Virus record (IMG/VR): IMGVR_UViG_3300036852_000533
Location: 1 to 52,184 of that record
Strand: one strand, 5' to 3'
Length of the DNA: 52,184 bases
Source: a virus
Taxonomy: Duplodnaviria > Caudoviricetes
In this document: positions 1,383 to 22,066 of the stretch, in pieces
Position numbering within the stretch: position 1 is the stretch's first letter
Layout: the number at the start of each line of letters is the position of its first letter
Translations under genes and position numbers: made by a program
The notes under the pieces: model-generated
Seen by the model: the letters and a program-made list of their open reading frames with translations, nothing else
What the model was told of the DNA's origin: nothing
Databases searched by the model: none

Positions 1383-1697
1383 ATGGACACTCAAAGTGCA
1401 AAGCCGATCGGAGCGCAGGACAATGGCGCGGTTCGCTGCACTGTCGGGTTAGGCGCACGGAGTGAGTCAGCAACGAGTAAATGGCGAAGAAACAACCCAG
1501 AGAGGGCACTGGCCAAACACCTGAAAGATGAAGCGAAGAAAAACGAACGAAAACACGAAGCGGGCGGGCGCGCAGAAACCCAAACGAAATGTGTCGAGTG
1601 CGGGATGGTCTTTGACCGCACGGAGGCACACGTCCGAGGCTTCCGAATCCTCAAAGGAAACCGGGGCTACAACTGCATCTGCGATGAGTGCGCCTAA
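1383..1697 (+). CDS. Cassette-borne Zn-finger-like protein, paralog of 8685..8990
   Basis: CVEC...CICDECA; stop TAA lies in the GCCTAAC core box; reads through an attC half-site. Confidence 0.7.
   Translation: MDTQSAKPIGAQDNGAVRCTVGLGARSESATSKWRRNNPERALAKHLKDEAKKNERKHEAGGRAETQTKCVECGMVFDRTEAHVRGFRILKGNRGYNCICDECA
1426..1454 (-). repeat. attC half-site (R''/L'' arm only)
   Basis: Plus strand GCGCGG-TTC-GCTGCACT-GTCGG-GTTAGGC, same layout as the arms of the intact sites; partner arm not found. Confidence 0.6.
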
Positions 1698-1797
1698 CGT
1701 CGCATTAAGCCACGCCGATGAAACCTGAACCGTCCAATCTCGCCGCGAACCCTGTGCCGCCAACGCCCCCGGCGCTGGCTTCAGTAAGTGGTTATGC
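1692..1797 (-). repeat. attC recombination site (intact)
   Basis: Plus strand GCCTAAC-GTCGC-ATTAAGCCACGCCG ... CGGCGCTGGCTTCAGT-AAGTG-GTTATGC; imperfect hairpin with unpaired bases on the right arm. Confidence 0.8.
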
Positions 1798-2023
1798 GGT
1801 GGGTGACAAAGTGACGGCAACGAGAAACATCTGGAGTGCTGCCAACGAGGACTCGCCCATGTATCTCTGCGCTTATCGTGGCGACATCTTAGAAATCCGC
1901 CGACTTGGTTCGTGTGGGTGGGCCTGCTACGTCGCACATCCCGAAAAAGAATCCGGCCCAATGTTTGGTGTCGAGGCTGGTGAAATCAAACCGCATAACG
2001 CAAAATCACAAAAGGGCAAATGA
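1718..2023 (+). CDS. Cassette-borne hypothetical protein
   Basis: Starts inside the attC loop; body bounded by the inverted pair GTTATGCGGT (1791) / ACCGCATAAC (1990). Confidence 0.7.
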   Translation: MKPEPSNLAANPVPPTPPALASVSGYAVGDKVTATRNIWSAANEDSPMYLCAYRGDILEIRRLGSCGWACYVAHPEKESGPMFGVEAGEIKPHNAKSQKGK

Positions 2024-3033
2024 GCTTTCAAAAGTGCCAAATCGTCGGGGTGAACATCTCACCGACGACGTACCATCAACCTCAGAAACACGAGCGCGGG
2101 TCGCCGGAGTTTGTCATGTCTCAATCCGCACTTAAATCCTTCGGAAAATGCCCAAGCAAATGGAAGGACGGCGCCGAGGAGGATGACACCGCTTCAATGG
2201 CGTGGGGCAACTTGGTTGACACGCTCGTTCTCACGCCACAGTTGTTCGCCGAACGCTATGCCATCCGACCCGAGACGTACAAGGATGAGAAGGGCAACGT
2301 GAAGGACTGGCATCCGAACTCCAACACCTGCAAGGCGTGGTTGGAAGCCTGTCACAAGTATGGTCGAGAGGCCATCAGCCGGGGCAAAGAATCCGAGGCG
2401 TCCAAGGCAGTTCTCAGATTGAAGCGCGACGTTCGCATTGCCGCGTTCTTGGCGGTCTGCAAGTTCCAAGTCGAGTTGCGCGGCTTCTGGAAGGACGACG
2501 TGACCGGACTGGAGATACCCGTGCGCTGCCTTTTGGACGCCGTGCCAGAAGGTGACAGTGAATTCGGGAATGACCTTGGCGATCTAAAAACCTCCAAGGA
2601 TGTTTCGCTTTACACCTTCCGCAGGCAGGCTGTCCGGCTCGGATACCACATTCAATCCGCTTTCAGCTTGGACTTCTTCAATGCTGCCAGTGGGCAGCAG
2701 CGCAACCAATGGCGATTTCTCTTGCAGGAGAGTGATCCGCCGTACCAGACGGGCCGGCGCATTTGCACGTCCTACGAGAACCCGCAGGATGCACCACCGC
2801 AGAACTTCATCCAGTTCGGGCGCGACGAATACAAGCGGATGATGCGGAACTACTGCATCTGCCTCAAGGCGGGCGTGTGGGGCGATTTCGATACGACCGA
2901 CGAAAGCGTAGAGGGCTGGAGCGTGCTTGAAGCCGACCCATGGGCCGTGAATGACGCCCTGTTCGCCCCCAAATTCCAGTTGCCCGAGAGTGCGGAGGAT
3001 TTACGGGTCAATGTGGAGGAGATCACACCATGA
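2020..3033 (+). CDS. RecE/exonuclease VIII-like PD-(D/E)XK nuclease (DUF3799-like)
   Basis: SQSALKSF..CP, MAWGNLVDTLVL, RCLLD..DLKTS and GYHIQ motifs; near the SSAP gene. Confidence 0.8.
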   Translation: MSFQKCQIVGVNISPTTYHQPQKHERGSPEFVMSQSALKSFGKCPSKWKDGAEEDDTASMAWGNLVDTLVLTPQLFAERYAIRPETYKDEKGNVKDWHPNSNTCKAWLEACHKYGREAISRGKESEASKAVLRLKRDVRIAAFLAVCKFQVELRGFWKDDVTGLEIPVRCLLDAVPEGDSEFGNDLGDLKTSKDVSLYTFRRQAVRLGYHIQSAFSLDFFNAASGQQRNQWRFLLQESDPPYQTGRRICTSYENPQDAPPQNFIQFGRDEYKRMMRNYCICLKAGVWGDFDTTDESVEGWSVLEADPWAVNDALFAPKFQLPESAEDLRVNVEEITP

Positions 3034-3254
3034 TGACACCATTTACTCAGATAAAATCACAACAGTTTCGCATCTACGAATTAGAACAAGAACGCGACGC
3101 CCTCCGACAAAAACTTAGAACTTGCATGGAAGAAAAAGGCGGGGTCACAGCCAATTACCTTAAGTGCCAGAACGATTTCAATGTCCTGAAACAACAAGTC
3201 GCCGCAATGCGAAAGGATAAACCGTGGAAACAAGAATCATTTACAACTGGCTGA
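3030..3254 (+). CDS. Small coiled-coil hypothetical protein
   Basis: ATGA-coupled to the exonuclease gene; heptad-like sequence. Confidence 0.6.
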   Translation: MMTPFTQIKSQQFRIYELEQERDALRQKLRTCMEEKGGVTANYLKCQNDFNVLKQQVAAMRKDKPWKQESFTTG

Positions 3255-3640
3255 TCGGAGGCTATTGGCCAGGCACCATTACGAAGCGCGGCCTCACAAT
3301 CTGGATGGGCTACTACTTCAACCACGATACGCTCCGCGGACGCTTCTCCTACTGGCTTCTCAACCTCGATTGCGCCATGCGTCGTTCTCCGCACGACCTG
3401 AAATTATGGCTGGCCGACCAGCTTTCACGCGCGGCCATGCGCTTGCGGGGCGAAAAGGTGAGTGTTTTTGGATTCTACGATTACGCCAAGGGCAATCGCG
3501 CTGCGCAACTGTGCGATGCCGTGGATTTTGACCATTGTCTCAACTGGTCGAATGACGAGGCTGACATGATCGAGGAAAACCGGGCCAGACTCCAGGAACT
3601 TGCGAGCCTTGCGGGAGCGACCTGGAGAAGCAACCCATGA
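3224..3640 (+). CDS. Hypothetical protein
   Basis: In operon; AGGA RBS before GTG. Confidence 0.6.
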   Translation: METRIIYNWLIGGYWPGTITKRGLTIWMGYYFNHDTLRGRFSYWLLNLDCAMRRSPHDLKLWLADQLSRAAMRLRGEKVSVFGFYDYAKGNRAAQLCDAVDFDHCLNWSNDEADMIEENRARLQELASLAGATWRSNP

Positions 3641-3753
3641 AACCCATCGCCAGCTTCTGCCTCGTCATCTTCATCGCCTTATGTGTGGCAGCGTTCGCTG
3701 CCGTCACGCTGGCGGCCATTTACTTCTTGGCGACGATCTTCAGCCAGTCCTAA
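3637..3753 (+). CDS. 38-aa single-TM membrane peptide (below the ORF-track cut-off)
   Basis: MKPIASFCLVIFIALCVAAFAAVTLAAIYFLATIFSQS; ATGA overlap with the upstream gene. Confidence 0.55.
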   Translation: MKPIASFCLVIFIALCVAAFAAVTLAAIYFLATIFSQS

Positions 3754-3788
3754 AAAGTAAATCCCGCCAGCCCTTTCGGACTGACGGG
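3752..3788 (-). terminator. Intrinsic terminator for 3810..4457
   Basis: Minus strand CCCGUCAGUCC-GAAA-GGGCUGGCGGG, 11-bp stem with GU pairs, followed by AUUUACUUUUU. Confidence 0.8.
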
Positions 3789-3809
3789 AGCACTTGGAAA
3801 AATTCCCGG

Positions 3810-4457
3810 TTATGGCGTTCTAGGATTGATCGTCACCGTACCATCGGGAGACACAGAGACGGAATTGGTCTGTCCGCCCACGCGCACGAGCGAAGCATTG
3901 CCCCAAGGCGTGACCGCCTTGACCGCTACAATGGCGGGGTCATTCTTCAATTCGCGCGCCAGCTTGCCCAAGCCAGCCGTTGAGCAGCCGGTGAGCGTCA
4001 TTGAAGCAGTCCCGAGCGAGAGCGCGCCGACCAGAAACCACAGACCCACTTTTCCACTGCCTGAAATAACATCTTGATCAAGGAGCGGATTCTGTTTCAC
4101 GAGAGCTTGGTGTCCCCACGTCGCCAATCCGCCCATGACGGCGCCAACATCGCCGCTGCCAGTCCAATAACCGGCTTTTCCGCCAATGTAATCAAGCAGT
4201 GCGCCAATCACCGGGCCGCACCAAGGCAGCGCGGCATCGGGCACGAACTTCAACCATTTCTTTATGGCCATTACGAGCGCGCCGATAACTGGCACGAACA
4301 GGAACTTCCACGCGCTGAATCTGGCCACAAGGTCGTGAATCTTTTGATCGGTCGCGTTCAGTTCCGGTGGCGCATTGGAGACGGTCTGCGCCAGAACCGT
4401 AAACGCGAGTGCGAAAAGCGGGATGAGGACGAGAAACCAGCGGATGTGATTCTTCAT
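3810..4457 (-). CDS. Membrane protein: N-terminal signal/TM, holin-like core, C-terminal lipobox segment
   Basis: VPVIGALVMAIKK..VPDAALPW..VIGALL..GAVMGGLATWGH resembles small 3-TM phage holins; a later hydrophobic stretch ends in LTGC. Confidence 0.6.
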   Translation of the reverse strand: MKNHIRWFLVLIPLFALAFTVLAQTVSNAPPELNATDQKIHDLVARFSAWKFLFVPVIGALVMAIKKWLKFVPDAALPWCGPVIGALLDYIGGKAGYWTGSGDVGAVMGGLATWGHQALVKQNPLLDQDVISGSGKVGLWFLVGALSLGTASMTLTGCSTAGLGKLARELKNDPAIVAVKAVTPWGNASLVRVGGQTNSVSVSPDGTVTINPRTP

Positions 4458-4463
4458 GCCTTG

Positions 4464-4492
4464 GTTTTACGCCGATTGCAAAAATCGTGCAA
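4464..4492 (-). promoter_or_regulatory. Sigma70-like promoter, probably leaderless, for 3810..4457
   Basis: TTGCAC-17 nt-TAAAAC, then 6 nt to the ATG; overlaps a TTGCA..TGCAA palindrome. Confidence 0.55.
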
Positions 4493-4597
4493 GAAAAAGC
4501 TTGCGTGTTGTTTATTAACTGTTAAACATGCATAAGTGATCCGCAGCCGCAGCCGCAGCCACGGCGAAATTTGTCAGCCGTCAGCCATCATGTGTCT

Positions 4598-4882
4598 ATG
4601 AACGCGACAATCTATTTCATCTACGAACTGGAAGCCGCGAGAAGCTTCTCGTGCAAGAACACCGTCGAGGACATCGAGGGAGAAATCCGCTACTGGCTCG
4701 GCAAGAGTCCAGGAATGTTCAAAGACCAGCTCAGGGAAATCGTCGTCGTGCCGGATGACCAGAAGAAGGACTGGATGTATGTGCTCCAAAAGCTGGAGGA
4801 CGAACAATCCGAGGCTGAGGAACGCCATCGCCTCAAAGCCGAGAAACGCGAATATGACCGGCTGAAGGCGAAGTATGGCTAA
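4598..4882 (+). CDS. Hypothetical protein
   Basis: ATG at 4598; stop lies in the degenerate core box GGCTAAT. Confidence 0.65.
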   Translation: MNATIYFIYELEAARSFSCKNTVEDIEGEIRYWLGKSPGMFKDQLREIVVVPDDQKKDWMYVLQKLEDEQSEAEERHRLKAEKREYDRLKAKYG

Positions 4883-5723
4883 TGACCAAGCTCAAGCAAT
4901 GACCACCGGACCCACAACGACCACTGAACTACCGGCGATCCCGCCGTTGGCTGGGCGGACTGATTCGACTGATTCTCGTCCGAATCATAAAACACTCGTC
5001 AGGAAATCCGCCGCATGGCTGCGCAACCGGAAAAATTGCAATGTGGTGTTCGCGGAACTGGCGACGCAAAATAACGAGACGCCGGATGTCATCGGCTTCC
5101 ACGGTGCCGGCGGATCAATACTCGTGGAATGTAAAACCAGCCGCGCCGATTTCCTCGCGGACAAAAACAAAATCTTCCGGCACCACGAGGAAATGGGAAT
5201 GGGCGATGCGCGATACTTCGCCGCACCCAAAGGACTGCTCAAGCCGGACGAACTCCCGGAAGGATGGGGGCTGCTGGAAATTACTGACGCTGATGGCAGA
5301 ACCTACGAAACCAAACAGGCGACTTACAAGGAGGCGAACAAGCGTGCCGAGGTCAAGATGCTCATGTCGGCAATTCGCCGTCTGGAAATCTCGACGGCAG
5401 TGTTCGTGCGCGCCGAGGAGGAGAACAGTGCGCGCCCAGACATGGTGGCGCGATGGGCGAAAATCTGCCACGAAGCACACGACCGCGATGAAGCATGGAT
5501 AGCCATGCTCCGCCGCGAAGGAATAAAAGCCGCGCACCCTGACGACGGCTGGGTGGACAGGGAGAATAACACCGTCCACTTCGCGTATCCGCAATTCAAT
5601 GATGGCGCTGGCATCGGTGACAAAATCGCTCTCGGCTGGGCATCCGACAAATGGCGCATCGTGACAATCACGGGCCGGGCCGATGGGCTGCTATTAGAAC
5701 GTTGGGCCTTTTCGTCGAACTGA
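4875..5723 (+). CDS. PD-(D/E)XK / MmcB-like nuclease domain fused to a second unknown domain
   Basis: ETPDVIGF..ILVECKTSRADFLAD..GMGDARYF..ELPEGWGLL in the N-half; unrelated C-half begins at MVARWAK. Confidence 0.65.
   Translation: MANDQAQAMTTGPTTTTELPAIPPLAGRTDSTDSRPNHKTLVRKSAAWLRNRKNCNVVFAELATQNNETPDVIGFHGAGGSILVECKTSRADFLADKNKIFRHHEEMGMGDARYFAAPKGLLKPDELPEGWGLLEITDADGRTYETKQATYKEANKRAEVKMLMSAIRRLEISTAVFVRAEEENSARPDMVARWAKICHEAHDRDEAWIAMLRREGIKAAHPDDGWVDRENNTVHFAYPQFNDGAGIGDKIALGWASDKWRIVTITGRADGLLLERWAFSSN
4877..4969 (-). repeat. Degenerate attC
   Basis: GGCTAAT-GACCAA-GCTCAAGC resembles the left arm at 8985; right arm TTG-GCTGGGCG-GACTG-ATTCGAC; both cores mutated and stem weak. Confidence 0.45.
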
Positions 5724-5829
5724 TAACATCATGGGAAAGATTGCAACAAAAGCTCTGAGCTTCCGTGAGCGCCGCGCCGAATTCTCGACGCGCATCATGG
5801 CGAATGGCCGGCAGAACGCGCGATAAGTT

Positions 5830-6045
5830 ATGAAACTGGTAAACGCCGGCGACAGAGTGGCGGAAGCCTCATTCGCCCCAGCGTCCGAACTACCAACCAG
5901 CATGAATGGCCGATGCCCTCACTGCAACGACTGGACATGGGAACGGCTGTGGGGTGCTCTTGTCCAATGTCTTCAATGCGGGAGGCGCTACTACCACCGG
6001 GGCTGCGAACGGCGAATGCAGCACGACGACAAGCTGAGGCACTGA
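5830..6045 (+). CDS. Small Zn-ribbon-like protein
   Basis: CPHC...CLQC. Confidence 0.55.
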   Translation: MKLVNAGDRVAEASFAPASELPTSMNGRCPHCNDWTWERLWGALVQCLQCGRRYYHRGCERRMQHDDKLRH

Positions 6046-6049
6046 GGCG

Positions 6050-6340
6050 ATGCAAACGAAAATTTTACTCTGCAAGAAATGCGGAAAATATCTGGACGTA
6101 TGCAAATGCGCAGGGGCAAAGCCTCAGTTGCATCCAACGGGTGTTATGCGGCCACACCATAGAAAGAATATAGTACGCGAAGCAAAATCTGAGATCGAGT
6201 GGTGTAAGGATCAGATTGCGCTGACTCAACTCGGCGGTGAAACAAAGCCATACACGCGAGCCGAATGGATAGTCTGTATGAATCGAAGAATCGAGGCGAA
6301 TCAACAAATACTCAAAAAGCACAATGCTCTGGCCGCATAA
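6050..6340 (+). CDS. Cassette-derived hypothetical protein
   Basis: Segment 6143-6341 bounded by the 12-bp inverted pair GTTATGCGGCCA / TGGCCGCATAAC; stop in the core box. Confidence 0.65.
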   Translation: MQTKILLCKKCGKYLDVCKCAGAKPQLHPTGVMRPHHRKNIVREAKSEIEWCKDQIALTQLGGETKPYTRAEWIVCMNRRIEANQQILKKHNALAA

Positions 6341-6347
6341 CGAACCC

Positions 6348-6929
6348 ATGACAAAAAAAGAATGTATCATCAAAGCCTGTCAGGTAATCCGCAAGCGGGT
6401 GCGCTTCGATGGCGCGTCAATCTCGCTGCCGACGACTCCGTTTCCGGGTAATGACACGAAGGCAATCCGTGAGGCAACGCGCCTCTACGTGGAATCGTGG
6501 ATCGTGCCACTACTCGACTCCATCGAATCCGGCGACATGACCCGGATCCGACAATACTACGAATTTGAGAAGGGCCACAAAATGGAGTCGCCCAACGTAA
6601 AGGTGGGCGGTCAGAGTGGGCGCGAGAATATGAAAAATGAAACTCCGAGAAGCGATGCTGCCGAAGAACGAACACGGCTGAACTACGAGATGTCTCGCGA
6701 GTGCGGCGACCCGCCATATCCCGGTGCTGACATGGCAGACTTTGCTCGTGGGCTGGAACGCGAACTGAATGAGGTGCTGGCGGTGTTCCGCCACCGGCAT
6801 GTGAACAACGGCGAGAATGATGGCTGTAAAAAGTGCGGCCTCGATCTGCGCCACGAGATACATGAGCGCGTGGCCGCGCAGCCCAACGGCCCGGATGAGC
6901 GGCCCGGCGCTAACACCCCAAAACTCTGA
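6348..6929 (+). CDS. Hypothetical protein, probably two genes in frame (second start at 6630) joined across an attC remnant
   Basis: GCCCAAC-GTAAAG-GTGGGCGG half-site at 6590 precedes an internal MKNETPRSD start. Confidence 0.55.
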   Translation: MTKKECIIKACQVIRKRVRFDGASISLPTTPFPGNDTKAIREATRLYVESWIVPLLDSIESGDMTRIRQYYEFEKGHKMESPNVKVGGQSGRENMKNETPRSDAAEERTRLNYEMSRECGDPPYPGADMADFARGLERELNEVLAVFRHRHVNNGENDGCKKCGLDLRHEIHERVAAQPNGPDERPGANTPKL

Positions 6930-6991
6930 CATGCAAAACGACCTTCTAACTGCTGACGCTCCGCCGGGTTCACACCAGCGCATGGTTGTGC
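6881..6991 (-). repeat. attC site (intact cores)
   Basis: GCCCAAC-GGCCCG-GATGAGC-GG-CCCGGCG ... CGCCGGG-TTC-ACACCAGC-GCATG-GTTGTGC. Confidence 0.75.
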
Positions 6992-7004
6992 CCATACTAC
7001 CGAC

Positions 7005-7319
7005 ATGCACACAAACGAAAAACTAATCTTCGAGGAAATTACAAATCCGAATGTCCTGCCAAAACTCAAGCTGGATGTCGTGGAATGTCCCGACTGTCAC
7101 CACCGCATTGCAGTGCCGGTGAAATATACTGACTGGCAAGAAACCGCTGAACGCTATCGGCGCGCATACGAAGCAATGATGACCAAACTCGGCGTGCTGC
7201 TCAAAGAGGCCGGTGAACAATTCGACGTGCCGTTGGTGGAATACTTCGACACCGAACGGCAACTGATGATCCAAATGCTCAACGAAATAATCGCTGGACT
7301 CGATAAACGCGATGAATAG
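7005..7319 (+). CDS. Cassette-borne hypothetical protein
   Basis: Bounded by GTTGTGCC (6985) / GGCACAAC (7319); CPDC motif. Confidence 0.7.
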   Translation: MHTNEKLIFEEITNPNVLPKLKLDVVECPDCHHRIAVPVKYTDWQETAERYRRAYEAMMTKLGVLLKEAGEQFDVPLVEYFDTERQLMIQMLNEIIAGLDKRDE

Positions 7320-7454
7320 GCACAACGCCCGAACTGAGCGACCGGAGGCGAAACATGAATAGCGATATACGCATGATGAATGTGGAGGATCAGCAAGACC
7401 TAAAAACTTTCGAGCAGGACGAGCCTCCAGTTCGCTCCAGTGAGCTTTTTAGAT
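7320..7454 (-). repeat. attC site with mutated R'' core
   Basis: GCACAAC-GCCCGA-ACTGAGC-GA-CCGGAGGC ... GCCTCCAG-TTC-GCTCCAGT-GAGCTT-TTTAGAT (GTT changed to TTT). Confidence 0.7.
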
Positions 7455-7729
7455 GCGTCGAAGTATCAAGTCAACTAAAAGACAATCTGACCGTGATGAA
7501 ACGGCTAATCGGCGACAAATGGCAAGAGTCGTCGAAGGAATATCGGGTCATCCTGCTCGCAGTGATGGCCGCAAGCGGAGACACCAACCCGCTAGGCTGC
7601 GCGATACCGATGGCAAAGGAAATGTCCGAACGAGGACACAGCCCGCTCATGCTGCTGGCCGTCGCAACGGAAATGAGCGAAGCATCTGACGTAGAGCGCA
7701 GCGACGGCGCTCAGAAAGACTCACGATGA
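7355..7729 (+). CDS. Cassette-borne hypothetical protein
   Basis: GGAGG RBS and ATG inside the attC; stop inside the next attC. Confidence 0.7.
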   Translation: MNSDIRMMNVEDQQDLKTFEQDEPPVRSSELFRCVEVSSQLKDNLTVMKRLIGDKWQESSKEYRVILLAVMAASGDTNPLGCAIPMAKEMSERGHSPLMLLAVATEMSEASDVERSDGAQKDSR

Positions 7730-7774
7730 AAAAGAAAACACAACAGCGCCGTTCGCTGCCGCGACGGGCTATGA
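7684..7774 (-). repeat. attC site with both cores mutated
   Basis: ATCTGAC-GTAGAG-CGCAGC-GA-CGGCGCT ... AGCGCCG-TTC-GCTGCCGC-GACGG-GCTATGA. Confidence 0.65.
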
Positions 7775-7980
7775 CTCCGAAGGGTTGGCGGCGACTGCTC
7801 GTGGGAGAGATGACCAGAAAAGGCGACTGGCTGGAAAATGTCGGAGATGGTCCGTGGACACGTCTGCGCGTCCGTTACTGCCTTAAAGAAGTAGAAGGTG
7901 ATTGGCGTGCCATCATCCGCCGGACGACCTCTCGCAAAAGGAGTCCTAACGCAGACTTCAGACACCCCGCCACACCATGA
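7726..7980 (+). CDS. Cassette-borne basic hypothetical protein
   Basis: Start in the attC loop with ATGA overlap; ends GCTATGACTCC / GGAGTCCTAAC are imperfectly complementary. Confidence 0.6.
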   Translation: MKKKTQQRRSLPRRAMTPKGWRRLLVGEMTRKGDWLENVGDGPWTRLRVRYCLKEVEGDWRAIIRRTTSRKRSPNADFRHPATP

Positions 7981-8023
7981 CTACCGAACTTAAAATGACG
8001 CGCGATGGCGGGGTTGTCTGGAC
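7944..8023 (-). repeat. Truncated attC (R'' lost)
   Basis: TCCTAAC-GCAGAC-TTCAGACA-CCCCGCCA ... TGGCGGGG-TT-GTCTGGAC; no GTT core follows. Confidence 0.6.
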
Positions 8024-8031
8024 TCTCTAAC

Positions 8032-8322
8032 ATGAACGCAACATATCCAACCGTCGAAGAGCAGGAGAAACTAGAACCTGCCAGAACTGTGCCCCGCTGT
8101 CGTGAATCGCAACGCTGGCTGAAAGAAGCCGACAAAATCATCGCGGCATACCCGGAGAAACACCGCGAGTATCACGCAATGGTGCTGCGGCATACCTACG
8201 AGAACGGGCTGTATGACACGAACTGTGCAATCAAATCTCTCATGGCGATAAAGGAACTCATCATCAAGGGTGAATACTCTGACGAGCGCGTGCTGGAACT
8301 GATAAACGAAGGGCTGCAATGA
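8032..8322 (+). CDS. Hypothetical protein
   Basis: ORF in the coupled early operon. Confidence 0.65.
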   Translation: MNATYPTVEEQEKLEPARTVPRCRESQRWLKEADKIIAAYPEKHREYHAMVLRHTYENGLYDTNCAIKSLMAIKELIIKGEYSDERVLELINEGLQ

Positions 8323-8522
8323 ATCTCGTGATGCTCATAGAAGAAGGATGCCGGGAAGTCTATGTGAACCCGGAAAGCGTCGAGTCAGTCCAAAATGCCG
8401 CAGGCGGAAAAGACTCCATCTTGTATCTGAAAACCGGGCGAAAGCTGATAGTCACCGGGTCAAGTGGCGATGTAATGTGCAAACTCAAAGGCATACGCTC
8501 GTGGAGAGACGCCCTGAAATGA
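8319..8522 (+). CDS. Small beta-rich hypothetical protein (FlbD-like pattern)
   Basis: VYVNPESVESV..SILYLKTGRKLIVTGS..DV resembles FlbD-like small proteins. Confidence 0.5.
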   Translation: MNLVMLIEEGCREVYVNPESVESVQNAAGGKDSILYLKTGRKLIVTGSSGDVMCKLKGIRSWRDALK

Positions 8523-8692
8523 AAACCTACACTGCCGAAGATTTCAAACGCTGGGGCGCGAAGGGCGGTGCAAAGTCCAAGCGTGTGCTGACCAAAGCAC
8601 AGGCCAAGGCGATGGTCGCCGCACGGGAAAAGAAACTTCGGAAAACCAAGCGCGTGGCCCGGCGTGCTAACGCAGAGGTCAGCCATGAGTGA
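8519..8692 (+). CDS. Small basic KGG-motif protein
   Basis: FKRWGAKGGAKSKR; very Lys/Arg rich; stop inside the attC. Confidence 0.65.
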   Translation: MKTYTAEDFKRWGAKGGAKSKRVLTKAQAKAMVAAREKKLRKTKRVARRANAEVSHE

Positions 8693-8762
8693 CGCGCCCG
8701 CGACATCCGAATCCACGCAAACCGTCAACGCGGCACTCATTGGCTGCACCGACGGGTTAGGC
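8665..8762 (-). repeat. attC site (intact)
   Basis: TGCTAAC-GCAGAG-GTCAGC-CA-TGAGTG ... CACTCA-TTG-GCTGCACC-GACGG-GTTAGGC. Confidence 0.82.
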
Positions 8763-8990
8763 GCACGGGATTGGAAGGCATACCGGCGCATCTGGAACAA
8801 GACGCACCCTGAAAGCATCAAGTCAGCACAGAAAAAACTGAGAACCAAAAAACATGAACAAGGCGAAATCGTCAACCAAGCCGAGTGCAAATGCACCGTA
8901 TGCAAAAGCGTCTTCAACCGCGATGACGCGCACCTGCGGGGATACCGATTCCTGTCGCGCTTCGTATGCGTGTGCGACGAGTGCGCCTAA
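8685..8990 (+). CDS. Cassette-borne Zn-finger-like protein, paralog of 1383..1697
   Basis: GLGAR...KHE.G...KC..C..VF.R..AH.RG.R...C.CDECA shared with 1383..1697; ends GTTAGGCGCAC / GTGCGCCTAAC. Confidence 0.75.
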   Translation: MSDAPATSESTQTVNAALIGCTDGLGARDWKAYRRIWNKTHPESIKSAQKKLRTKKHEQGEIVNQAECKCTVCKSVFNRDDAHLRGYRFLSRFVCVCDECA

Positions 8991-9110
8991 CGACCAAGCT
9001 CAGCGACCTGTGCCGGAGACAGGCGTTGAGCGGAAAGGAAACGATGAATGAACCAACAGCGGTCGTGCGTGAAAAGCGCGGCACAGGTTCTCTGGAGCGC
9101 ATGGTTAGGT
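8985..9110 (-). repeat. attC site (intact)
   Basis: GCCTAAC-GACCAA-GCTCAGC-GA-CCTGTGCCG ... CGGCACAGG-TTC-TCTGGAGC-GCATG-GTTAGGT. Confidence 0.85.
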
Positions 9111-9373
9111 GTGCGTCGTGCAAATACTGGGGAACTAAACCCGGTGAACGCGGCAATCCTCGCCTGCGGTCCTGCAACCATCCAAAGCATGTGATGGGAT
9201 ACCAGTCCGCCGCCGCCGTGCCAGATGACGGAATGATAATCGAATCGGATGAGGGATGGGGCATCGAAGTTGGGCCTCTCTTTGGGTGCGTGAATGGTGA
9301 GGCGAGCACACCTAACGGTGCGCTATGCGACGGGGATGAGCCGCCGCAGACGTTGAAATCGAAACAATCGTGA
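9044..9373 (+). CDS. Cassette-borne Cys-rich hypothetical protein
   Basis: AAGGA RBS and ATG in the attC loop; CASCKYW...GPLFGCV; ends GTTAGGTGTGC / GCACACCTAAC. Confidence 0.75.
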   Translation: MNEPTAVVREKRGTGSLERMVRCASCKYWGTKPGERGNPRLRSCNHPKHVMGYQSAAAVPDDGMIIESDEGWGIEVGPLFGCVNGEASTPNGALCDGDEPPQTLKSKQS

Positions 9374-9410
9374 ACGGCTCATCCCCGTTCGCTGCAGCGC
9401 ATGGTTAGGC
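9310..9410 (-). repeat. attC site (intact)
   Basis: ACCTAAC-GGTGCG-CTATGC-GA-CGGGGATGAGCCG ... CGGCTCATCCCCG-TTC-GCTGCAGC-GCATG-GTTAGGC. Confidence 0.87.
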
Positions 9411-9436
9411 GACTGGAATAATTTTTGGAATAATTT

Positions 9437-9649
9437 ATGAACGAGAAAGAGCAAACCGATCACTTCGCCAACGATGTGGACAACCTGGTAGAACGTTACC
9501 GGAGCGAATACGAGATGAGCTACGCCGCCGTCGTGGGCGTGCTCCAAATGAAAATCCATCTACTGTGCGACGAAGCATCGGAGCGTGGTGATGAAGTCGC
9601 CCAACGTCCGCATAAGCGATGGCGGACACGAGACGTGAAAATTAACTGA
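9437..9649 (+). CDS. Cassette-borne hypothetical protein
   Basis: Ends GTTAGGCGACT / AGTCGCCCAAC; C-terminal tail encoded by the next attC. Confidence 0.7.
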   Translation: MNEKEQTDHFANDVDNLVERYRSEYEMSYAAVVGVLQMKIHLLCDEASERGDEVAQRPHKRWRTRDVKIN

Positions 9650-9687
9650 CGGCATCGCCCGCCATTCGCTTCATGCGGTGGTTAGGC
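9599..9687 (-). repeat. attC site (intact)
   Basis: GCCCAAC-GTCC-GCATAAGC-GA-TGGCGG ... CCGCCA-TTC-GCTTCATGC-GGTG-GTTAGGC. Confidence 0.85.
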
Positions 9688-9708
9688 ATCCGTCGAACCA
9701 ACAAAAAC

Positions 9709-9924
9709 ATGATACATATAATCGAATCCTTCGCCTGCGGACTCGCGTTCGCAATGGGAATAACCTCGTGGTTCTTCATCCGCGACTTGGCGACCGTGAA
9801 AGGTCGCGAAGAACTGAAAAAAGAAATGCACGAACACGCCAAGCGCGTCGAGGACAGGCTGGCTGTCCAAGTCTCGACGATGCTTGTCTGTCTCGACGAA
9901 ATCAAGAAGCGCAAGGATGCCTAA
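9709..9924 (+). CDS. Cassette-borne small membrane-anchored protein
   Basis: N-terminal TM then coiled coil; ends GTTAGGCATCC / GGATGCCTAAC; stop in the core box. Confidence 0.7.
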   Translation: MIHIIESFACGLAFAMGITSWFFIRDLATVKGREELKKEMHEHAKRVEDRLAVQVSTMLVCLDEIKKRKDA

Positions 9925-10023
9925 CGAAAAAGCTGACCGATGAGAGGGAGCGCGCCAACGACGTTCGATTCGAGAGTGAGCCAAACGCGCTCCCTCTCAT
10001 TCGTGTCCAGCGCATTGTTCCCC
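9919..10023 (-). repeat. attC site (intact, belongs to the attI-proximal cassette)
   Basis: GCCTAAC-GAAAAG-CTGACC-GA-TGAGAGGGAGCGCG ... CGCGCTCCCTCTCA-TTC-GTGTCCAGC-GCATT-GTTCCCC. Confidence 0.85.
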
Positions 10024-10044
10024 GACTGGTCGAAAAAGAAAAGC

Positions 10045-10073
10045 TTGACACCACAAGCGGCTTGTGATACAAT
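10045..10073 (+). promoter_or_regulatory. Near-consensus sigma70 promoter with a palindromic operator in the spacer
   Basis: TTGACA-17 nt-TACAAT; spacer contains CACAAGC-G-GCTTGTG (10052-10066). Confidence 0.8.
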
Positions 10074-10083
10074 GCCAGTGAAG

Positions 10084-10461
10084 ATGAAAACTGAACTCAT
10101 CCAAATCGGGCTGACCGCCGCACAGGTGGACTCAGCGGACTGGCTACTCGGCTGCCCTCTCTTTTACGATGCCGCCGAATCACTCGCCCACAACTGGGAC
10201 GAGACACCGGAGCGCGCCGCCGCAATCGTGGCCGCTGCAAAACAAGTGAAGCGTGACGGGCGGACTCTGACGCTGCCAAACGACCATGAGGTAATCGAAT
10301 ACCTGCACCAATACGCCGAGCAACTGGCGGACATGAGCGCAAAGGAATACCTCGATGAACTCGTGGGCAAAGGCATCCCGCACCGTGAAGCTCAATGCAA
10401 GGTCAACGCCGCCGTGCGGTCTGCGGAATCGCTCGCGGAGAAAATCGCCTGCCACCTATGA
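10084..10461 (+). CDS. Hypothetical protein, first gene of the two-gene attI-proximal cassette
   Basis: ATG just downstream of the promoter; ATGA-coupled to the next gene. Confidence 0.7.
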   Translation: MKTELIQIGLTAAQVDSADWLLGCPLFYDAAESLAHNWDETPERAAAIVAAAKQVKRDGRTLTLPNDHEVIEYLHQYAEQLADMSAKEYLDELVGKGIPHREAQCKVNAAVRSAESLAEKIACHL

Positions 10462-10613
10462 ATCCCGAAGCTCGCAAATACCTCGCCAGCATCGGAAGCA
10501 AAGGCGGGAAGGCAACCGGGACAAGCAAGCGGCGTGGGTCTGCCGCCTACTACAAACGAATCTCAAAGCTCGCCGCGAAAGCACGAAAGGCGAAGTCGGG
10601 GAACTCTTATTAA
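10458..10613 (+). CDS. Small basic KGG-motif protein (possible DNA-binding regulator)
   Basis: YLASIGSKGGKATG..RG..YYKRISKLA; stop codon lies within the attI candidate. Confidence 0.7.
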   Translation: MNPEARKYLASIGSKGGKATGTSKRRGSAAYYKRISKLAAKARKAKSGNSY

Positions 10614-10616
10614 GCA
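10598..10616 (-). other. Candidate attI site
   Basis: Minus strand TGCTTAA-TAAGA-GTTCCCC (L box, 5 nt, R box) with no hairpin partner; AGTCGGGGAAC at 10594 is the perfect complement of the cassette's other end GTTCCCCGACT at 10017; immediately upstream of intI. Confidence 0.7.
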
Positions 10617-10626
10617 TCATCCACGC

Positions 10627-11601
10627 ATGTTTAAGGATAATTTCATAACGGTTGCCAGAGCACACGGGTTGCGACTCCAGACCGAACGCGCTTATTACGG
10701 CGCGGCAGCCAAGCATATTAAGTGGCTTGGAGCGAGGTCTGCAAAGGATTTGGAGCGTGATCCGACGAAACAATTCCGGGATTACCTCACCATGCTGGCC
10801 AATGTGAATGGCGATAGAAGCGAAGGCGACGAAGGCATTTCAGCTTCCAGCCAGAATTTGGCATTTCACGCATTGAGATTTCTCTACGAAAAAGTAATCG
10901 GCATCCAGCTTGGAGACCTTTCAAACATTCCGCGCGCAAGCGGGCACGAAAGAATTGTGGATGTGCCCCCTGACGATGTGGCGATAAAACTCGTGCAATC
11001 AGTGCCGGGCGTTAACGGAGTCGCGCTGCGCTTGATCTATGGCACTGCCGGACGGCTCAATGACATTCTGAGATTGCGAGTTAAGGATTTGGACTTCCGC
11101 AGGAAACTCGTGAGCGTGCAGGAGAGCAAGGGTGGTAAATCACGCCTCGTCCCAATGCCGCCTAGTCTGATTCCAGAACTTTCCGCGCTGGTAAAGGAGC
11201 GGGAAAGGATTCACGAGGCAGACTTGGCGGACGGATTTGGGTGGGTTCACATGCCGGGGATGCTGGCCAAAAAATATCCTGGAGAGGAAAACTCGCCCGG
11301 CTGGCAGTACCTGTTCGCATCAGCAACACTTTCCAAAGACCCCATCAGCGGAAAAACGGGGAGGCATCATATCTTTGACGTGACATTGCAACGTGCCTTC
11401 GCCAATGCGCGGCGGAAGTTGCGAATCAAACGGCACTACACTATTCACGGACTCCGCCACGCTGCGGCTCAATGGATGGAGCGCAACGGGGTGACGCGCT
11501 CAACGATTCAGGAAATTCTCGGGCACGAAAATTCGAGTACGACCGACCGTTATCTCCTATCTGGGAAACGCAGCGTGGCGAACGTGCCGACGCCAATCTA
11601 G
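10627..11601 (+). CDS. intI: Integron integrase (IntI-family tyrosine recombinase)
   Basis: N-terminal SAM-like domain (TERAY..SASSQNLAFHALRFLY); catalytic R (GRLND), K (SKGGK), HGLRH, LGH, Y (TTDRY); IntI-specific insert GWVHMPGMLAKKYP..GWQYLF...SKDPISGKTGRHH. Confidence 0.92.
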   Translation: MFKDNFITVARAHGLRLQTERAYYGAAAKHIKWLGARSAKDLERDPTKQFRDYLTMLANVNGDRSEGDEGISASSQNLAFHALRFLYEKVIGIQLGDLSNIPRASGHERIVDVPPDDVAIKLVQSVPGVNGVALRLIYGTAGRLNDILRLRVKDLDFRRKLVSVQESKGGKSRLVPMPPSLIPELSALVKERERIHEADLADGFGWVHMPGMLAKKYPGEENSPGWQYLFASATLSKDPISGKTGRHHIFDVTLQRAFANARRKLRIKRHYTIHGLRHAAAQWMERNGVTRSTIQEILGHENSSTTDRYLLSGKRSVANVPTPI

Positions 11602-11864
11602 GGATGGTTTGTCGCCGACGGATGAAAGTGAGCGACCTCCATGCGAACGGCATCAAGTTTGTTCTCCAAATCCATCATGTGCCGCCATTGCGCCGCACGG
11701 GCGTCCTTTTCATCCTGCCGATGCTGGTTGAAGTGGTCACTGGTTACGAATAACTGATAAGCTAAAACGAGGGATAACCCACCGCCGGCAGCCGTGGACA
11801 CTTTCCCCTTGTGCTTATCAGCAATGTTGCGCGTCCGCTGAAGCAATGTGGTGTCGCCGCTCAT
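11598..11864 (-). CDS. Small single-TM coiled-coil protein (possible lysis accessory)
   Basis: TM AAGGGLSLVLAYQLFV then coiled coil; last gene of the late operon. Confidence 0.5.
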   Translation of the reverse strand: MSGDTTLLQRTRNIADKHKGKVSTAAGGGLSLVLAYQLFVTSDHFNQHRQDEKDARAAQWRHMMDLENKLDAVRMEVAHFHPSATNHP

Positions 11865-11866
11865 AT

Positions 11867-12259
11867 TTAATTTATTAGTGGTTTATGACGCTTGATTGTA
11901 GGTGGATTCATCAATTTGTGATTCGCTATGGCTGACAACCAAGCAGCAAGTGTTCGTGTGTCTTTTTGTAAACTCTTATCTTCTTCGATTTTTTCGCACT
12001 GAGAAAGCAGCGCTCCCCAATCCTCAAAAGTCAATTCATAGTTCCTGTCAAGATATTTGTCCAGTAACGCATCTATGTTAAGGTGGTCATCAGGACTATG
12101 TAACAACTTCGCAGCTTTTTGTCCAAACAACGCCATCACTGCTTCAAGACGTGTAACTCGCTCACTCATTTTCCCGTGTGCGTTAATAGCACTGACTGCA
12201 AAGACAAGAAAAACACTCGCAAAACCACCAAGCAACCACAATGTAATTGATTCAGTCAT
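11867..12259 (-). CDS. N-terminal TM protein (possible lysis accessory)
   Basis: ITLWLLGGFASVFLVFAV then SERVTRLE; AT-richer than neighbours. Confidence 0.55.
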   Translation of the reverse strand: MTESITLWLLGGFASVFLVFAVSAINAHGKMSERVTRLEAVMALFGQKAAKLLHSPDDHLNIDALLDKYLDRNYELTFEDWGALLSQCEKIEEDKSLQKDTRTLAAWLSAIANHKLMNPPTIKRHKPLIN

Positions 12260-12301
12260 TTAGTAAACGGATGTTCTGGGTGACTTGGTTCGTGCTCAGT
12301 T

Positions 12302-14152
12302 TCATTTCGAGTGTTGCACCACGAACGGCGCGCTCAAAGCTGTCGTCGTGGCTGAACCGCCGTTGGCGTGATCCAGGTCATCAAAATAGATGGTGTTTCG
12401 GAATCCACCCACGCTTGCCACATGCCCCGCCGAATCCACGGCGATTGCACTGCCACTGGTGGGGGCCGCGCCGCCTGCCCGCTTCACCCATCGGCTTGCG
12501 CCCGTGCTGTTGGCGCTGGCGATGAAATAGGTGGCATTTCCGCTTAGAAATGTGTTTGGAGCGAAGGAAACAAATGACGTAAGCTGGCCGGTGTAGAAGA
12601 TATTTCCGCTGCTGTCCACCGTCACGGAAACACCCAAGTCCCCTGCTCCATAGCCGTAACCGGGAATGTTTGGAGTTCTGGCCCACAAGTAATTTCCACT
12701 CACATCGTACGCCGCAAGAAACAGGCCGCCATCGTTGTTGGCTGTGCCGTCATAATATGCCACCACCGGGCCTCCCACGGATGAGGAAGCACGATAATTC
12801 CCCGTGGCGATGATATTTCCGGTGATCGGGTCAGCGGCAACAGCCTTGATGCCGTCGTCTGAAGGACTACCTCTTGGCTTGAACCATTTGCACAGCCCGT
12901 CCGATCCTGAAAATTTTACCAGAAACACGTCGTAACCCGCACTGACCACACTCTGGCCACACAGATTGACCGTGCCATTGTATCCTCCACACAGGACTGC
13001 ATCTCCGAACTTGTCAATGGCCAGAGCACTCGGGCTGTTTAGAATCAAGGACGATGAGGAAAACCCTTTGGCCCAGAGCGCCGTGCCGTTATTACTGGAT
13101 AGCTTGGCGACAGCGATGGCATTACCGGGACCGGTGTTGGCGACGGTAAAGCTGTCAAACACCATTCCAGTGCCGACAAACTGACAGGCAACAAACACGT
13201 TGCCGCTTCCATCCAATGACACGCCTTTGCCTCCTGAACTGGATGACGAACCAAAGCGTCTCGCCCAGATGAGAGTGCCCGGAACACCGGAAGTGCCGGG
13301 AGAATATTTGGCGACATACGTATCGGTGGAGGCCACTGCCGTCAGCGGTGTGCCGCCGAAGTCCACCGTGCCTGAAAAGAATCCACAGACGATAATGTTC
13401 CCGGTTGAGTCCGTGGCCACACCCGTCACATCTTCATTGTAGATGCCGCCGAGGCGCTTCGCCCAAAGCAGACCGCCCTGGGAGTTGTATTTGACAACGA
13501 AAATGTCCGTTCCGCCCGCTGATTCCAGATGAGTGTTTCCGAAATCAACGTAGGGAGCGAACGCACCGGAGGAGATGACGTTTCCATTGGCATCAGCGGC
13601 CACGGCAGTTGGGCTGGCGTTCGCGTTAAGCACGCCGATACCAACCCATCTGAACGTTCCCGGAACGGGCGCATTGGTCGGCCTGGCCACGACGCGATAA
13701 ACCATCATACTGTTCGTGCGTGGGAGTTGCAGGACGTTTGTGCTGTTGGTCGGTGGATACACTGATGAAGCTTGTAACCATGTTGCGCCGCTGGGAACCA
13801 CTGTCGGTTTGCTCTCGATGAAACTCTCGTAACTATTGGTCGCCGTCCATTTCAGGACGACGGTGTTCGAGCTTTTCGTGATGAAAATGGCGGCGGGATA
13901 TGAACCGAGCGGTGTTGTCGGAACTGGTGGAGGTTGTGCGGCGACCATTGCAGCAATCTGATTCGTGGTCGGCACATAATAGTTCTTCGTCGGATCAATT
14001 GCGGCCGTGCTCACCATCGGCTTGTTGAGCGTGTCGGCGCTGGCCGCGTCCTTCGGGCTGCGGACTTTGGCGTTCAATGGCAGCACAAGCATCATCACGC
14101 ACGCCGCAAGCAGCGTGAGGGCCAGAATCTTTTCCTCGGTGCGCCAGTTCAT
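12302..14152 (-). CDS. Secreted-type beta-propeller (SBBP-like repeat) protein
   Basis: Repeated VAxDxxGN..G.F..TVDFG..DxFVVKY..G..LWAK blades; N-terminal signal-like segment; start reassigned to 14152. Confidence 0.75.
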   Translation of the reverse strand: MNWRTEEKILALTLLAACVMMLVLPLNAKVRSPKDAASADTLNKPMVSTAAIDPTKNYYVPTTNQIAAMVAAQPPPVPTTPLGSYPAAIFITKSSNTVVLKWTATNSYESFIESKPTVVPSGATWLQASSVYPPTNSTNVLQLPRTNSMMVYRVVARPTNAPVPGTFRWVGIGVLNANASPTAVAADANGNVISSGAFAPYVDFGNTHLESAGGTDIFVVKYNSQGGLLWAKRLGGIYNEDVTGVATDSTGNIIVCGFFSGTVDFGGTPLTAVASTDTYVAKYSPGTSGVPGTLIWARRFGSSSSSGGKGVSLDGSGNVFVACQFVGTGMVFDSFTVANTGPGNAIAVAKLSSNNGTALWAKGFSSSSLILNSPSALAIDKFGDAVLCGGYNGTVNLCGQSVVSAGYDVFLVKFSGSDGLCKWFKPRGSPSDDGIKAVAADPITGNIIATGNYRASSSVGGPVVAYYDGTANNDGGLFLAAYDVSGNYLWARTPNIPGYGYGAGDLGVSVTVDSSGNIFYTGQLTSFVSFAPNTFLSGNATYFIASANSTGASRWVKRAGGAAPTSGSAIAVDSAGHVASVGGFRNTIYFDDLDHANGGSATTTALSAPFVVQHSK

Positions 14153-21850: not shown

Positions 21851-22066
21851 TTAGATGCTTTCGTGTTCAGCACACCATTTTCTCAAACACGCCAAATCAC
21901 AGAAATCATAGATAAACAACGTGCAAGGTTCTTCTGTTATTGGCATTGAAGCGTTACGCTCGATTTGAGGCGTGTAAATTGAAACGACCTTTCTCAATTC
22001 CAAAATTTCCCCAGAGACATCGTGCTCTTTGCCGCATTGGTCGCATTTATTTTTAGATATTTTCAC
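21851..22066 (-). CDS. Small Zn-binding hypothetical protein
   Basis: CDQCG...DFCDLACL. Confidence 0.55.
   Translation of the reverse strand: MKISKNKCDQCGKEHDVSGEILELRKVVSIYTPQIERNASMPITEEPCTLFIYDFCDLACLRKWCAEHESI

Follow-up and report, generated by a model that had tools for sequence, protein, structure and literature searches.

Organization of the locus

The stretch of DNA analysed here, which we call the window, is the complete 52,184-base record of a soil phage with a 52-kb genome (Duplodnaviria; Caudoviricetes; IMG/VR record IMGVR_UViG_3300036852_000533), and its ends form an exact direct terminal repeat of 127 nt. In its first 11.6 kb lie a gene for an integron-type tyrosine recombinase (intI), a predicted attI site immediately ahead of that gene, and an array of attC hairpins associated with small open reading frames (ORFs) that we refer to as cassette genes (Table 1). 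Integrons are bacterial gene-capture devices. We conclude, with a probability of about 0.85, that the one described here is a genuine integron that is native to the phage lineage and does not belong to the host, because all three parts are present and each proves to be integron-type in tests that use only bacterial references; the complete integron that had been proposed from the letters alone (the sequence-only reading) is upheld in this respect.

The recognizable genes within positions 1 to 11.6 kb are all on the + strand, and gene direction turns to the − strand from 11.6 kb. This + strand block has genes for an Erf-type annealing protein (erf, 363-1340, +) and an exonuclease (exo, 2020-3033, +) at its start, both upstream of the array, and intI at its end.

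Table 1. Coordinates of the integron and associated features in the window. A slash within a sequence marks the predicted crossover; R1 is the covariance model and 'geometric' the pattern scan described in the text.
Feature	Position	Strand	Remarks
intI, integron-type tyrosine recombinase	10627-11601	+	324 amino acids (aa); ORF open from 10534; TIGR02249
attI (predicted)	10598-10626	+	box GGGGAA/C, crossover 10603/10604, then conserved TCTTATTAAGC, 23 nt before intI ATG
attC nearest attI	9919-10023	+	first cassette 9925-10603; R1 19.1 bits, E 0.008; 15-bp perfect stem
attC	9599-9687	+	cassette 9605-9924; R1 46.2 bits, E 7e-10; DNA fold z -3.3; geometric 14/14, extrahelical C and T
attC	9310-9410	+	cassette 9316-9604; R1 35.7 bits; DNA fold z -6.05, 0/200 shuffles as stable
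attC	8985-9110	+	cassette 8991-9315; R1 40.1 bits; right box GTTAGGT vs next left box ACCTAAC 4/4
attC	8665-8762	+	cassette 8671-8990; R1 41.1 bits; geometric 14/14
attC	6881-6991	+	cassette 6887-7325; R1 31.0 bits, E 6.5e-6
attC	1692-1797	+	R1 37.0 bits; geometric 14/14
Decayed attC-like	7690-7768	+	end boxes absent; R1 19.5 bits, E 0.007, model positions 7-91
Decayed attC-like	7320-7452	+	no GTT; R1 15.8 bits, E 0.06
Weak or decayed attC	6021-6149	+	left box ends GAC; cassette ends 6340; R1 16.7 bits, E 0.036
Cassette ORFs	8685-8990, 9044-9373, 9437-9649, 9673-9924, 10084-10461, 10458-10613	+	from the ORF list
Isolated cassette outside array	1692-1998	+	cassette 1698-1998; attC 1692-1797 and ORF 1718-2023; GTTATGC matched by GCATAA/C 1993-1999
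Paralogue of cassette ORF 8685-8990	1383-1697	+	keeps attC 3′ arm (~1431-1454); ends GCCTAA/C
Sigma-70-like promoter, TTGACA-17-TACAAT	10045-10073	+	inside first cassette, towards intI; 11/12 consensus positions plus TG

The integrase

The intI frame is open over 10534-11601, and M32 at 10627 is the likely start, as in the database copy of the protein (P0002, 324 aa). Pfam recognizes Phage_integrase (1.7e-26) and SAM_4 in the product, and by far the best family is NCBIfam TIGR02249, 'integron integrase' (230.9 bits, positions 10-311 of 315), with NF011946, also an integron integrase profile, next at 151.3 bits and the XerC and XerD profiles at only 59.8 and 51.1 bits respectively. The residues expected to be catalytic (R, K, HxxR, H and Y) are all present in the translation (within AGR, SKGGK, HGLRH, GH and RY), and a 33-member alignment (A1) shows no variation at R143, K168 and R277 and hardly any at H274, H300 and Y309.

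The top relative of solved structure is VchIntIA/IntI4, the integron integrase of Vibrio cholerae (2a3v, E 7.5e-35). The two align without a large gap over residues 102-354, spanning the IntI-specific stretch VHMPGMLAKKYPGEENSPGWQYLFAS, and the alignment is unbroken over the additional-domain stretch VHMPGMLAKKYPGEENSPGWQYLFASATLSKDPISGKTGRHH, with the W, DP and RHH positions matched; the IntI-specific insertion noted in the sequence-only reading is confirmed. Xer-type chains match the flanks only and skip residues 224-300, the XerC-like chain 4a8e, for instance, aligning at 151-223 and 301-341. In the VchIntIA structure it is reportedly residues of this additional domain that hold the extrahelical bases of the folded substrate.

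attC sites

We searched for attC sites with a geometric scan whose pattern comprises AAC...GTT boxes, a spacer of 4-6 nt, 3 bp, an unpaired base, 6 bp, a second unpaired base and 5 bp. When applied to 24 bacterial intI loci that had enough DNA upstream, it gave 51 matches upstream of intI on the intI strand, 3 upstream on the other strand, and 1 and 3 on the two strands downstream, with nine of the 24 loci lacking an upstream match on the intI-sense strand. So strong a bias in strand and position shows that the matches are real attC sites, and it also establishes their polarity. The window yields three perfect matches (14/14), as against none in 40 dinucleotide shuffles.

A covariance model (R1) was then constructed from 23 bacterial attC sites representing 13 loci, with no phage sequence at all and with a structure written by hand; its source was a 29-row alignment from which six misaligned or oddly spaced rows (L038:7261, L087:5124, L087:8611, L045:4402, L060:8506 and L089:2238) were taken out. 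Run on both strands of the window with filters off, R1 finds seven sites, all on the + strand and exactly those that the sequence-only reading had marked as hairpins (at 6881, 8665, 8985, 9310, 9599 and 9919, plus 1692); the reverse (−) strands of the seven score 17.5 bits or less, and nothing in the window outside 1692-10023 has an E-value below 0.1. Across 80 bacterial and metagenomic intI loci (1.09 Mb, both strands) all 143 of 143 R1 matches at E<=1e-4 are on the intI-sense strand, and the polarity of the phage attC sites is therefore canonical. The low score of the site nearest attI is accounted for by its left box in situ (GCCTAAC), which belongs to the neighbouring cassette.

On the + strand, counting from its 3′ end, each site begins with a box of 7 nt and a spacer of 5 nt; 3 bp then lead to an unpaired C (once G) and 6 bp more to an unpaired T, so that the extrahelical bases fall at positions 16 and 23 of the arm that faces AAC. 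A recurrent 'GA versus TTC' signature had been described for these hairpins, and this is roughly right, the C (once G) and T of the 3′ arm on the + strand corresponding to G and A on the other strand. C and T are also the commonest unpaired pair in the bacterial set (39 of 51 sites), and the available text of Nivina et al. (2016) gives G16 and T23 as the extrahelical bases in the bottom strand of attCaadA7. In the inner helix, pairing across 25 attC sites from the phage IntI family reaches 97.4 %, and compensatory changes affect both partners in 13 of the 14 pairs; the covariation score is 0.599, compared with 0.174 after shuffling (0 of 500 shuffles reach the observed value) and 0.04-0.10 when the partner column is slid.

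attI and the footprints of recombination

A hairpin-less core site had been noted just upstream of intI, and GGGGAAC at 10598-10604 answers to that description. We regard attI as a predicted site, placed by a homology boundary and by a box match. The boundary is provided by L002, the closest relative for which there is DNA (IntI 78 % identical), which is homologous to the window over 10603-11601 only: the homology starts directly after AAC and stops at the intI stop codon, and the genes upstream of AAC are unrelated. AAC followed by TCTTATTA is also present in L136, and a variant form of it in L135 and L004. As to the box match, the attI-side box is the complement of the right box of the first attC in 5 of 5 family members (the window, L002, L135, G002 and L004), each with a different four-letter word, the L135 site having been read by eye.

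The cut by IntI is expected between the A and C of 5′-AAC-3′ at the left end of each hairpin. Such a crossover would split the left box, whose first six letters would belong to the cassette on the left, the right box of which lies one hairpin back. The ends of cassettes were compared at 23 sites from the window, G002 and L004. Out of 92 variable positions, the right box is complementary to the left box that follows at 79 and to its own hairpin partner at 58, and none of 10,000 permutations is as good. One of the 23 rows (the first G002 cassette against attI) was counted as 1/4 and is by eye TCCTAAC, or 4/4. The poor pairing of the outer box is what a left box divided between neighbouring cassettes would produce: GTTCCCC of the last attC scores 1/4 against GCCTAAC of its own hairpin and 4/4 against the attI-side GGGGAAC. 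For the site at 6881, the complement of GTTGTGC (GCACAAC) occurs a single time in the window, at 7320, directly after the stop codon of ORF 7005-7319, and for the sites at 1692 and 6021, GTTATGC is matched by GCATAAC at 1993 and 6335 (of 3 copies in the window), the copy at 6335 overlapping the TAA of ORF 6050-6340. These end-box matches imply that the array extends back to ~6021, through sites that have since decayed.

The relative G002 has tandem copies of a 245-nt cassette. The repeat unit starts with CTAAC from an attC, and its final copy ends in ...TCCTAA/C joined to attI, which is what re-insertion at attI would leave. That the + strand is the recombining strand is agreed upon by three observations: the boundary falls at AAC and not at GTT, the unpaired bases lie where they do, and the model prefers this strand. 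Taken as footprints, these junctions indicate that site-specific recombination at AA/C has occurred in the window phage and in its IntI relatives.

We note separately that in the G002 record (L129 19788-20000, L003 1-424) the 59.7-kb contig closes with 142 bases that match its opening 142 at 98.6 % identity. This end repeat lies inside the tandem cassette, which encodes a 50-aa membrane-like peptide, and the record is either circular or else broken by the repeat.

Cassette genes

The direction of the cassette genes departs from that of bacterial integrons. Of 22 intervals in the phage family, 19 have their longest ORF on the same strand as intI (5/6 in the window, 12/13 in G002 and 2/3 in L004); in bacterial loci 3 of 30 do (13 of 62 when the sites are defined by R1). 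The cassette genes here are inverted relative to attC, being encoded by the bottom (recombining) strand and read towards intI; the usual layout, with genes on the top strand that are read away from attI from the promoter Pc, is not seen. The sequence-only reading had invoked the canonical layout of an intI divergent from attI and an attC array, and on this point it has to be corrected, since intI is co-directional with the cassette genes and at their downstream end, and only the polarity of the attC sites with respect to intI is canonical. We take the + strand frames to be real genes because the paralogues at 1383 and 8685, and the genes recognized by Pfam in related arrays, are on that strand.

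Several cassette ORFs take their stop codon from the TAA of the next attC box, or from attI. The first-cassette ORFs of the window (10458-10613) and of L002 (13-804) are unrelated and yet have the same attI-encoded end, AAC TCT TAT TAA (N-S-Y-stop). The promoter-like site in the first cassette is a pattern match only, and such sites are no commoner in this region than in shuffles of it; it is the sole strong one, and it points to intI.

None of the cassette ORFs of the window belongs to a Pfam, PHROG or NCBIfam family. Protein Atlas associates ORF 8685-8987 with viral hypothetical clusters at 0.90, which is a lead only, and ORF 4875-5723 has, apart from the window's own copy, a sole match, to L025 (38 % identity). 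Pfam does recognize cargo on the intI strand of related arrays, in a search confined to + strand ORFs: three N6_N4 methylases, one protein each of the Mom and Methyltransf_24 families, and two PAPS_reduct proteins. The Mom-like gene is that of L002, and methylase genes occur in G002. This DNA-modification cargo suggests a role in counter-defence against restriction. The earlier view that no resistance array has been captured from a host fits what we find, in that the genes belong to no known families, are packed in the + strand block with erf and exo, and accompany an IntI lineage that is absent from the bacterial genomes scanned. ORFs 8519-8692 and 10458-10613 both encode small, very basic proteins whose common feature is a GxKGG motif only (E 0.25).

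The isolated cassette lies between the cassette-type ORF 1383-1697 and the exonuclease gene. The proteins of ORFs 1383-1697 and 8685-8990 are 40 % identical (E 7e-17), and the DNA of this pair is nearly identical solely at the attC arm and the end box; R1 finds no full attC at 1383-1697. The pair was considered as a test of which end of the hairpin carries the crossover, and was set aside as undiscriminating, the copies being too old.

A phage lineage of integron integrases

In a FastTree phylogeny of 226 rows rooted on three Xer proteins, the protein groups with IntI and not with the non-integron recombinases. The phage IntI family forms one clade of 35 members with a long stem and an SH-like support of 100 on the IntI side of the tree, near other viral IntI branches at the base of IntI, where the deep nodes are unsupported (20-29). 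The protein database holds ~90 relatives at 44-79 % identity, many of them on contigs of 20-77 kb, and the relatives in this range come from viral or unassigned metagenome contigs; of the five that were read in contig collections, three are viral and two metagenomic. A scan of viral contigs with the single IntI protein found no relative, whereas a scan with the family alignment did.

Outside this group similarity falls away. The same alignment, used on the genomes of bacterial species, gave 80 loci with ordinary IntI proteins at 32-41 % identity, and no IntI of more than 41 % identity was found in bacterial representative genomes (best 80 of 574 confirmed relatives, a scope that applies to the bacterial comparisons throughout). 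Among GenBank phages, nine of 50,697 records hold an IntI relative, all at 35.3 % identity or less. As judged from its occurrence in viral and unassigned metagenome contigs, the lineage appears to be confined to phages.

Other viral integrases were encountered in the course of these searches. A second IntI clade in IMG/VR (L007 7921-9704, L010, L017 and L018; support 99) is ~35 % identical to the window IntI. Its genes, too, are preceded by attC arrays, and all 4 of the 4 intervals have their longest ORF on the intI strand; L023 (2 of 2 intervals) and L024 (2 of 3, including a DNA methylase) look similar. In L223 (GenBank KX853513, Virus Rctr41k, Caudoviricetes; 4680-10101) an IntI-like gene that is annotated as xerD and whose product is 34 % identical to the window IntI is followed downstream by six attC matches on the opposite strand, with methyltransferase-like genes in between. 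This represents a second layout of a phage integron, with intI first and everything in one direction.

Proposed mechanism

We propose that IntI recognizes attC sites folded as single-stranded hairpins, and that the + strand here serves both as the recombining 'bottom' strand and as the coding strand. A crossover between two attC sites would release a circle that begins with C and the hairpin, continues through one or two small genes and closes with ...YYYAA, and recombination of attI with attC would insert such a circle at 10603/10604, 23 nt ahead of the intI start codon. We infer that the cassettes are transcribed from promoters upstream of or within them, and not from a Pc beside intI, and that the cargo is likely to consist of phage accessory genes. 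The integron may well be active in this phage today, although we hold this with less confidence than the existence of the integron itself.

Evidence from contigs

Only two soil sequencing runs (X1 and X2) carry the stretch, both as contigs, and X1 is probably its source. No joint between attC sites of the kind that excision or reordering would give is listed among the contigs of these runs. In one X2 contig, 10507 is followed by 30 letters of other sequence and then by 8599, so that parts of ORFs 10458-10613 and 8519-8692 are joined; we considered this as a recombination product and read it instead as a third, diverged copy of these small ORFs, perhaps in a variant phage. X2 also has loose contig ends at 9410 and 10482. 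In X1, attC arms are found around other DNA in small contigs (record 3), and 31-mers of 9385-9412 have a depth of 35, compared with 18.8. The arms in other contexts fit a wider cassette pool, X1 being the probable source sample and thus not independent.

Weighing the interpretations

Several observations weigh against a phage-native, working integron. The IntI score of 230.9 bits is below the curated cut-off of TIGR02249 (265). The training sites of R1 were chosen by a scan whose geometry had been set after the phage sites were seen, so that the validity of the model rests on the bias of strand and position in the bacterial loci. The attI-distal sites are decayed (GAC in place of AAC at 6021, no GTT at 7320-7452 and no end boxes at 7690-7768), and part of the array is therefore probably fixed; the segment 6341-6886 likewise has a cassette-like end and no attC. 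ORFs 8519-8692, 9044-9373 and 9437-9649 span predicted crossovers, and excision would alter the C-termini of their products. Lastly, the relatives share only intI and attI with the window (11 of 31 high-scoring segment pairs have at least 70 bits, all within 10578-11601), so cassette order is not comparable between otherwise similar genomes; and as no cassette protein of the window was found in the other fetched loci (a comparison that did not cover ORFs 6349 and 10085), cassette exchange between phages is not demonstrated.

Of the other explanations, the one that survives best is that IntI is mainly, or also, a lysogeny integrase, with one attC, or attI, acting as attP and the whole genome inserting itself, like a single very large cassette, into an integron of the host or at a secondary site. 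Among the window ORFs scanned there is no second integrase or recombinase that might do this work, a circular genome with an attC site is formally equivalent to a cassette, and intI stands at the end of the gene block where − strand genes begin, in a position comparable to that of lambda int. A Vibrio prophage flanked by attC sites is moreover described in the available text of Qi et al. (2023; PMC9892861). However, no repressor or other lysogeny gene was recognized among the same ORFs, neither a prophage copy nor a close IntI was found in bacterial representative genomes, and integration of the genome leaves unexplained both the array with its matching cassette ends and the tandem re-insertion at attI. 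We think it rather unlikely that lysogeny is the main role or an additional one, and note that such a role would be compatible with a phage-native integron and not exclusive of it.

A little less likely again is a relic, that is, a real integron that recombined in the past and whose cassettes have since become ordinary phage genes in a fixed order, while intI either does another job or is decaying. The decay of the attI-distal sites, the three ORFs that cross crossover points and the fact that footprints record past events only are all in keeping with this. A relic sits less easily with an intact intI that has all of its catalytic residues, with five intact attI-proximal sites whose cassette ends match perfectly, with attC arms that are kept at the DNA level even within diverged coding sequence, or with the arms in other contexts of the source community (with the reservation on independence given above).

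It is improbable that the phage captured a piece of a host chromosomal integron in the manner of the Vibrio anguillarum phages. Cases of that kind are known (available text of Qi et al., 2023), and the attC arms do resemble those of some bacterial arrays, such as L056 and L094. Against this, nothing in the scanned bacterial genomes exceeds 41 % identity to an IntI that has its own long-stemmed clade, the orientation of the genes is inverted (19/22 intervals, compared with 3/30 in bacteria), the ORFs overlap their neighbours start-to-stop on the same strand as the flanking phage genes, and a cassette and a cassette paralogue lie inside the erf-exo module. Finally, the idea that the hairpins are terminators, REP-like repeats or unrelated RNA structures and the enzyme a Xer or phage-type recombinase can draw on the overlap of several hairpins with gene ends, on minimum-energy folds that are not a single hairpin at 6868-6995 and 1686-1800 (8980-9116 has a z of -0.59) and on the lack of an Rfam match, and is contradicted so thoroughly by the bacterial attC model, the strand asymmetry, the 16/23 geometry, the matching of cassette ends and the IntI insertion that we dismiss it.

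Comparison with known systems

The sedentary chromosomal integrons of bacteria (L076, L096, L056 and L197, among bacterial and metagenomic loci) resemble the phage integron in having an IntI with the extra domain, attI at the 5′ end of intI, and an attC array upstream of intI with its bottom strand in the intI sense, unpaired bases at 16/23 (C and T commonest) and ends that match across the crossover. The window differs from them in being a 52-kb phage genome with an IntI of at most 41 % identity, in having cassette genes on the bottom strand and directed towards intI, whereas the bacterial genes run the opposite way, in an attI that is only 23 nt from the intI start, and in an array that is short, with five intact sites, one weaker and several decayed. 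According to the available text of Nivina et al. (2016), cassettes inserted so as to face the promoter have been unobserved in mobile or chromosomal integrons.

Two further arrangements invite comparison. Treponema-type integrons have an inverted intI that is upstream of the cassettes and co-directional with the cassette genes, the polarity of attC to gene being the usual one. In the window intI is downstream, and it is the genes and not intI that are inverted relative to attC, although the co-direction of intI and genes is alike; Rctr41k has a more Treponema-like order, with intI and then attC sites downstream on the opposite strand. In lambda-type phages the integrase gene (int) encodes a tyrosine recombinase and stands at the far end of the early operon. 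In the window, too, a tyrosine recombinase gene closes a long block of small accessory genes that runs rightwards, but its product is an IntI, the substrates of which are folded single strands at many sites, whereas lambda has one double-stranded attP.

Integron parts in phages are already in print. As described in the available text of Qi et al. (2023; Front Microbiol, PMC9892861), a screen of 10,705 phage genomes turned up, in temperate phages, one integrase on its own and three integrons that were complete, and also 17 attC clusters lacking an integrase. The complete cases are a fragment of a Vibrio chromosomal integron, a class 1 integron in a P1 phage and one in a Shewanella prophage, of which at least those of Vibrio and P1 are host-type; on that account the printed phage cases are captured host pieces or attC clusters that lack an integrase. 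The likeness to the window lies in the presence of integron parts in phage genomes and of DNA methyltransferase genes among the cargo of the attC clusters. The integrases of that study are 26-35 % identical to the window IntI, which belongs to a separate clade and has inverted cassette genes. The literature searched yielded, on phage integrons, only the study of Qi et al. (2023), and no description of an IntI lineage native to phages that has an attI of its own and cassettes all of inverted polarity.

A broader proposition, which we advance tentatively and which may well prove wrong, is that phages own integrons: one or more old and separate IntI lineages would shuffle Mom-like and orphan DNA methyltransferase genes for counter-defence, drawing on an inverted cassette pool that is functionally unmixed with the bacterial one and mirroring the bacterial integrons that store defence genes. 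Preprints of 2024 are said to describe integrons as stores of anti-phage defence genes. If the proposition is true, the phage side of the arms race uses the same machine, with its own integrase clade and attI and a polarity suited to gene blocks that run in one direction, and cargo could pass between otherwise unrelated phages. The near-basal position of the viral IntI branches leaves open whether integrons arose in phages. Since the recombining strand is here the coding strand, the system is also a natural experiment on strand selectivity, and its compact set of IntI, attI and attC offers a platform of ~1 kb for laboratory tests.

Other features of the genome

Genes for a large terminase, a DnaB helicase and a Holliday junction resolvase are encoded elsewhere in the window, which has no Rfam family at gathering scores (0 matches) and no tRNA. 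The majority of the − strand genes have no PHROG or Pfam match. A GroES-type co-chaperonin gene (Cpn10, E 6.9e-11; 22063-22350, −) lies amid unrecognized − strand genes; other − strand products are a 796-aa protein with a family 2 glycosyltransferase domain (19451-21841) and a 1438-aa protein with a GNAT acetyltransferase domain (28370-32686). Some contigs in both soil runs match the window solely at 11776-13372, a region that encodes a beta-propeller repeat protein, and have identical foreign flanks at both ends; it seems that a related gene is present in another genome of both communities.

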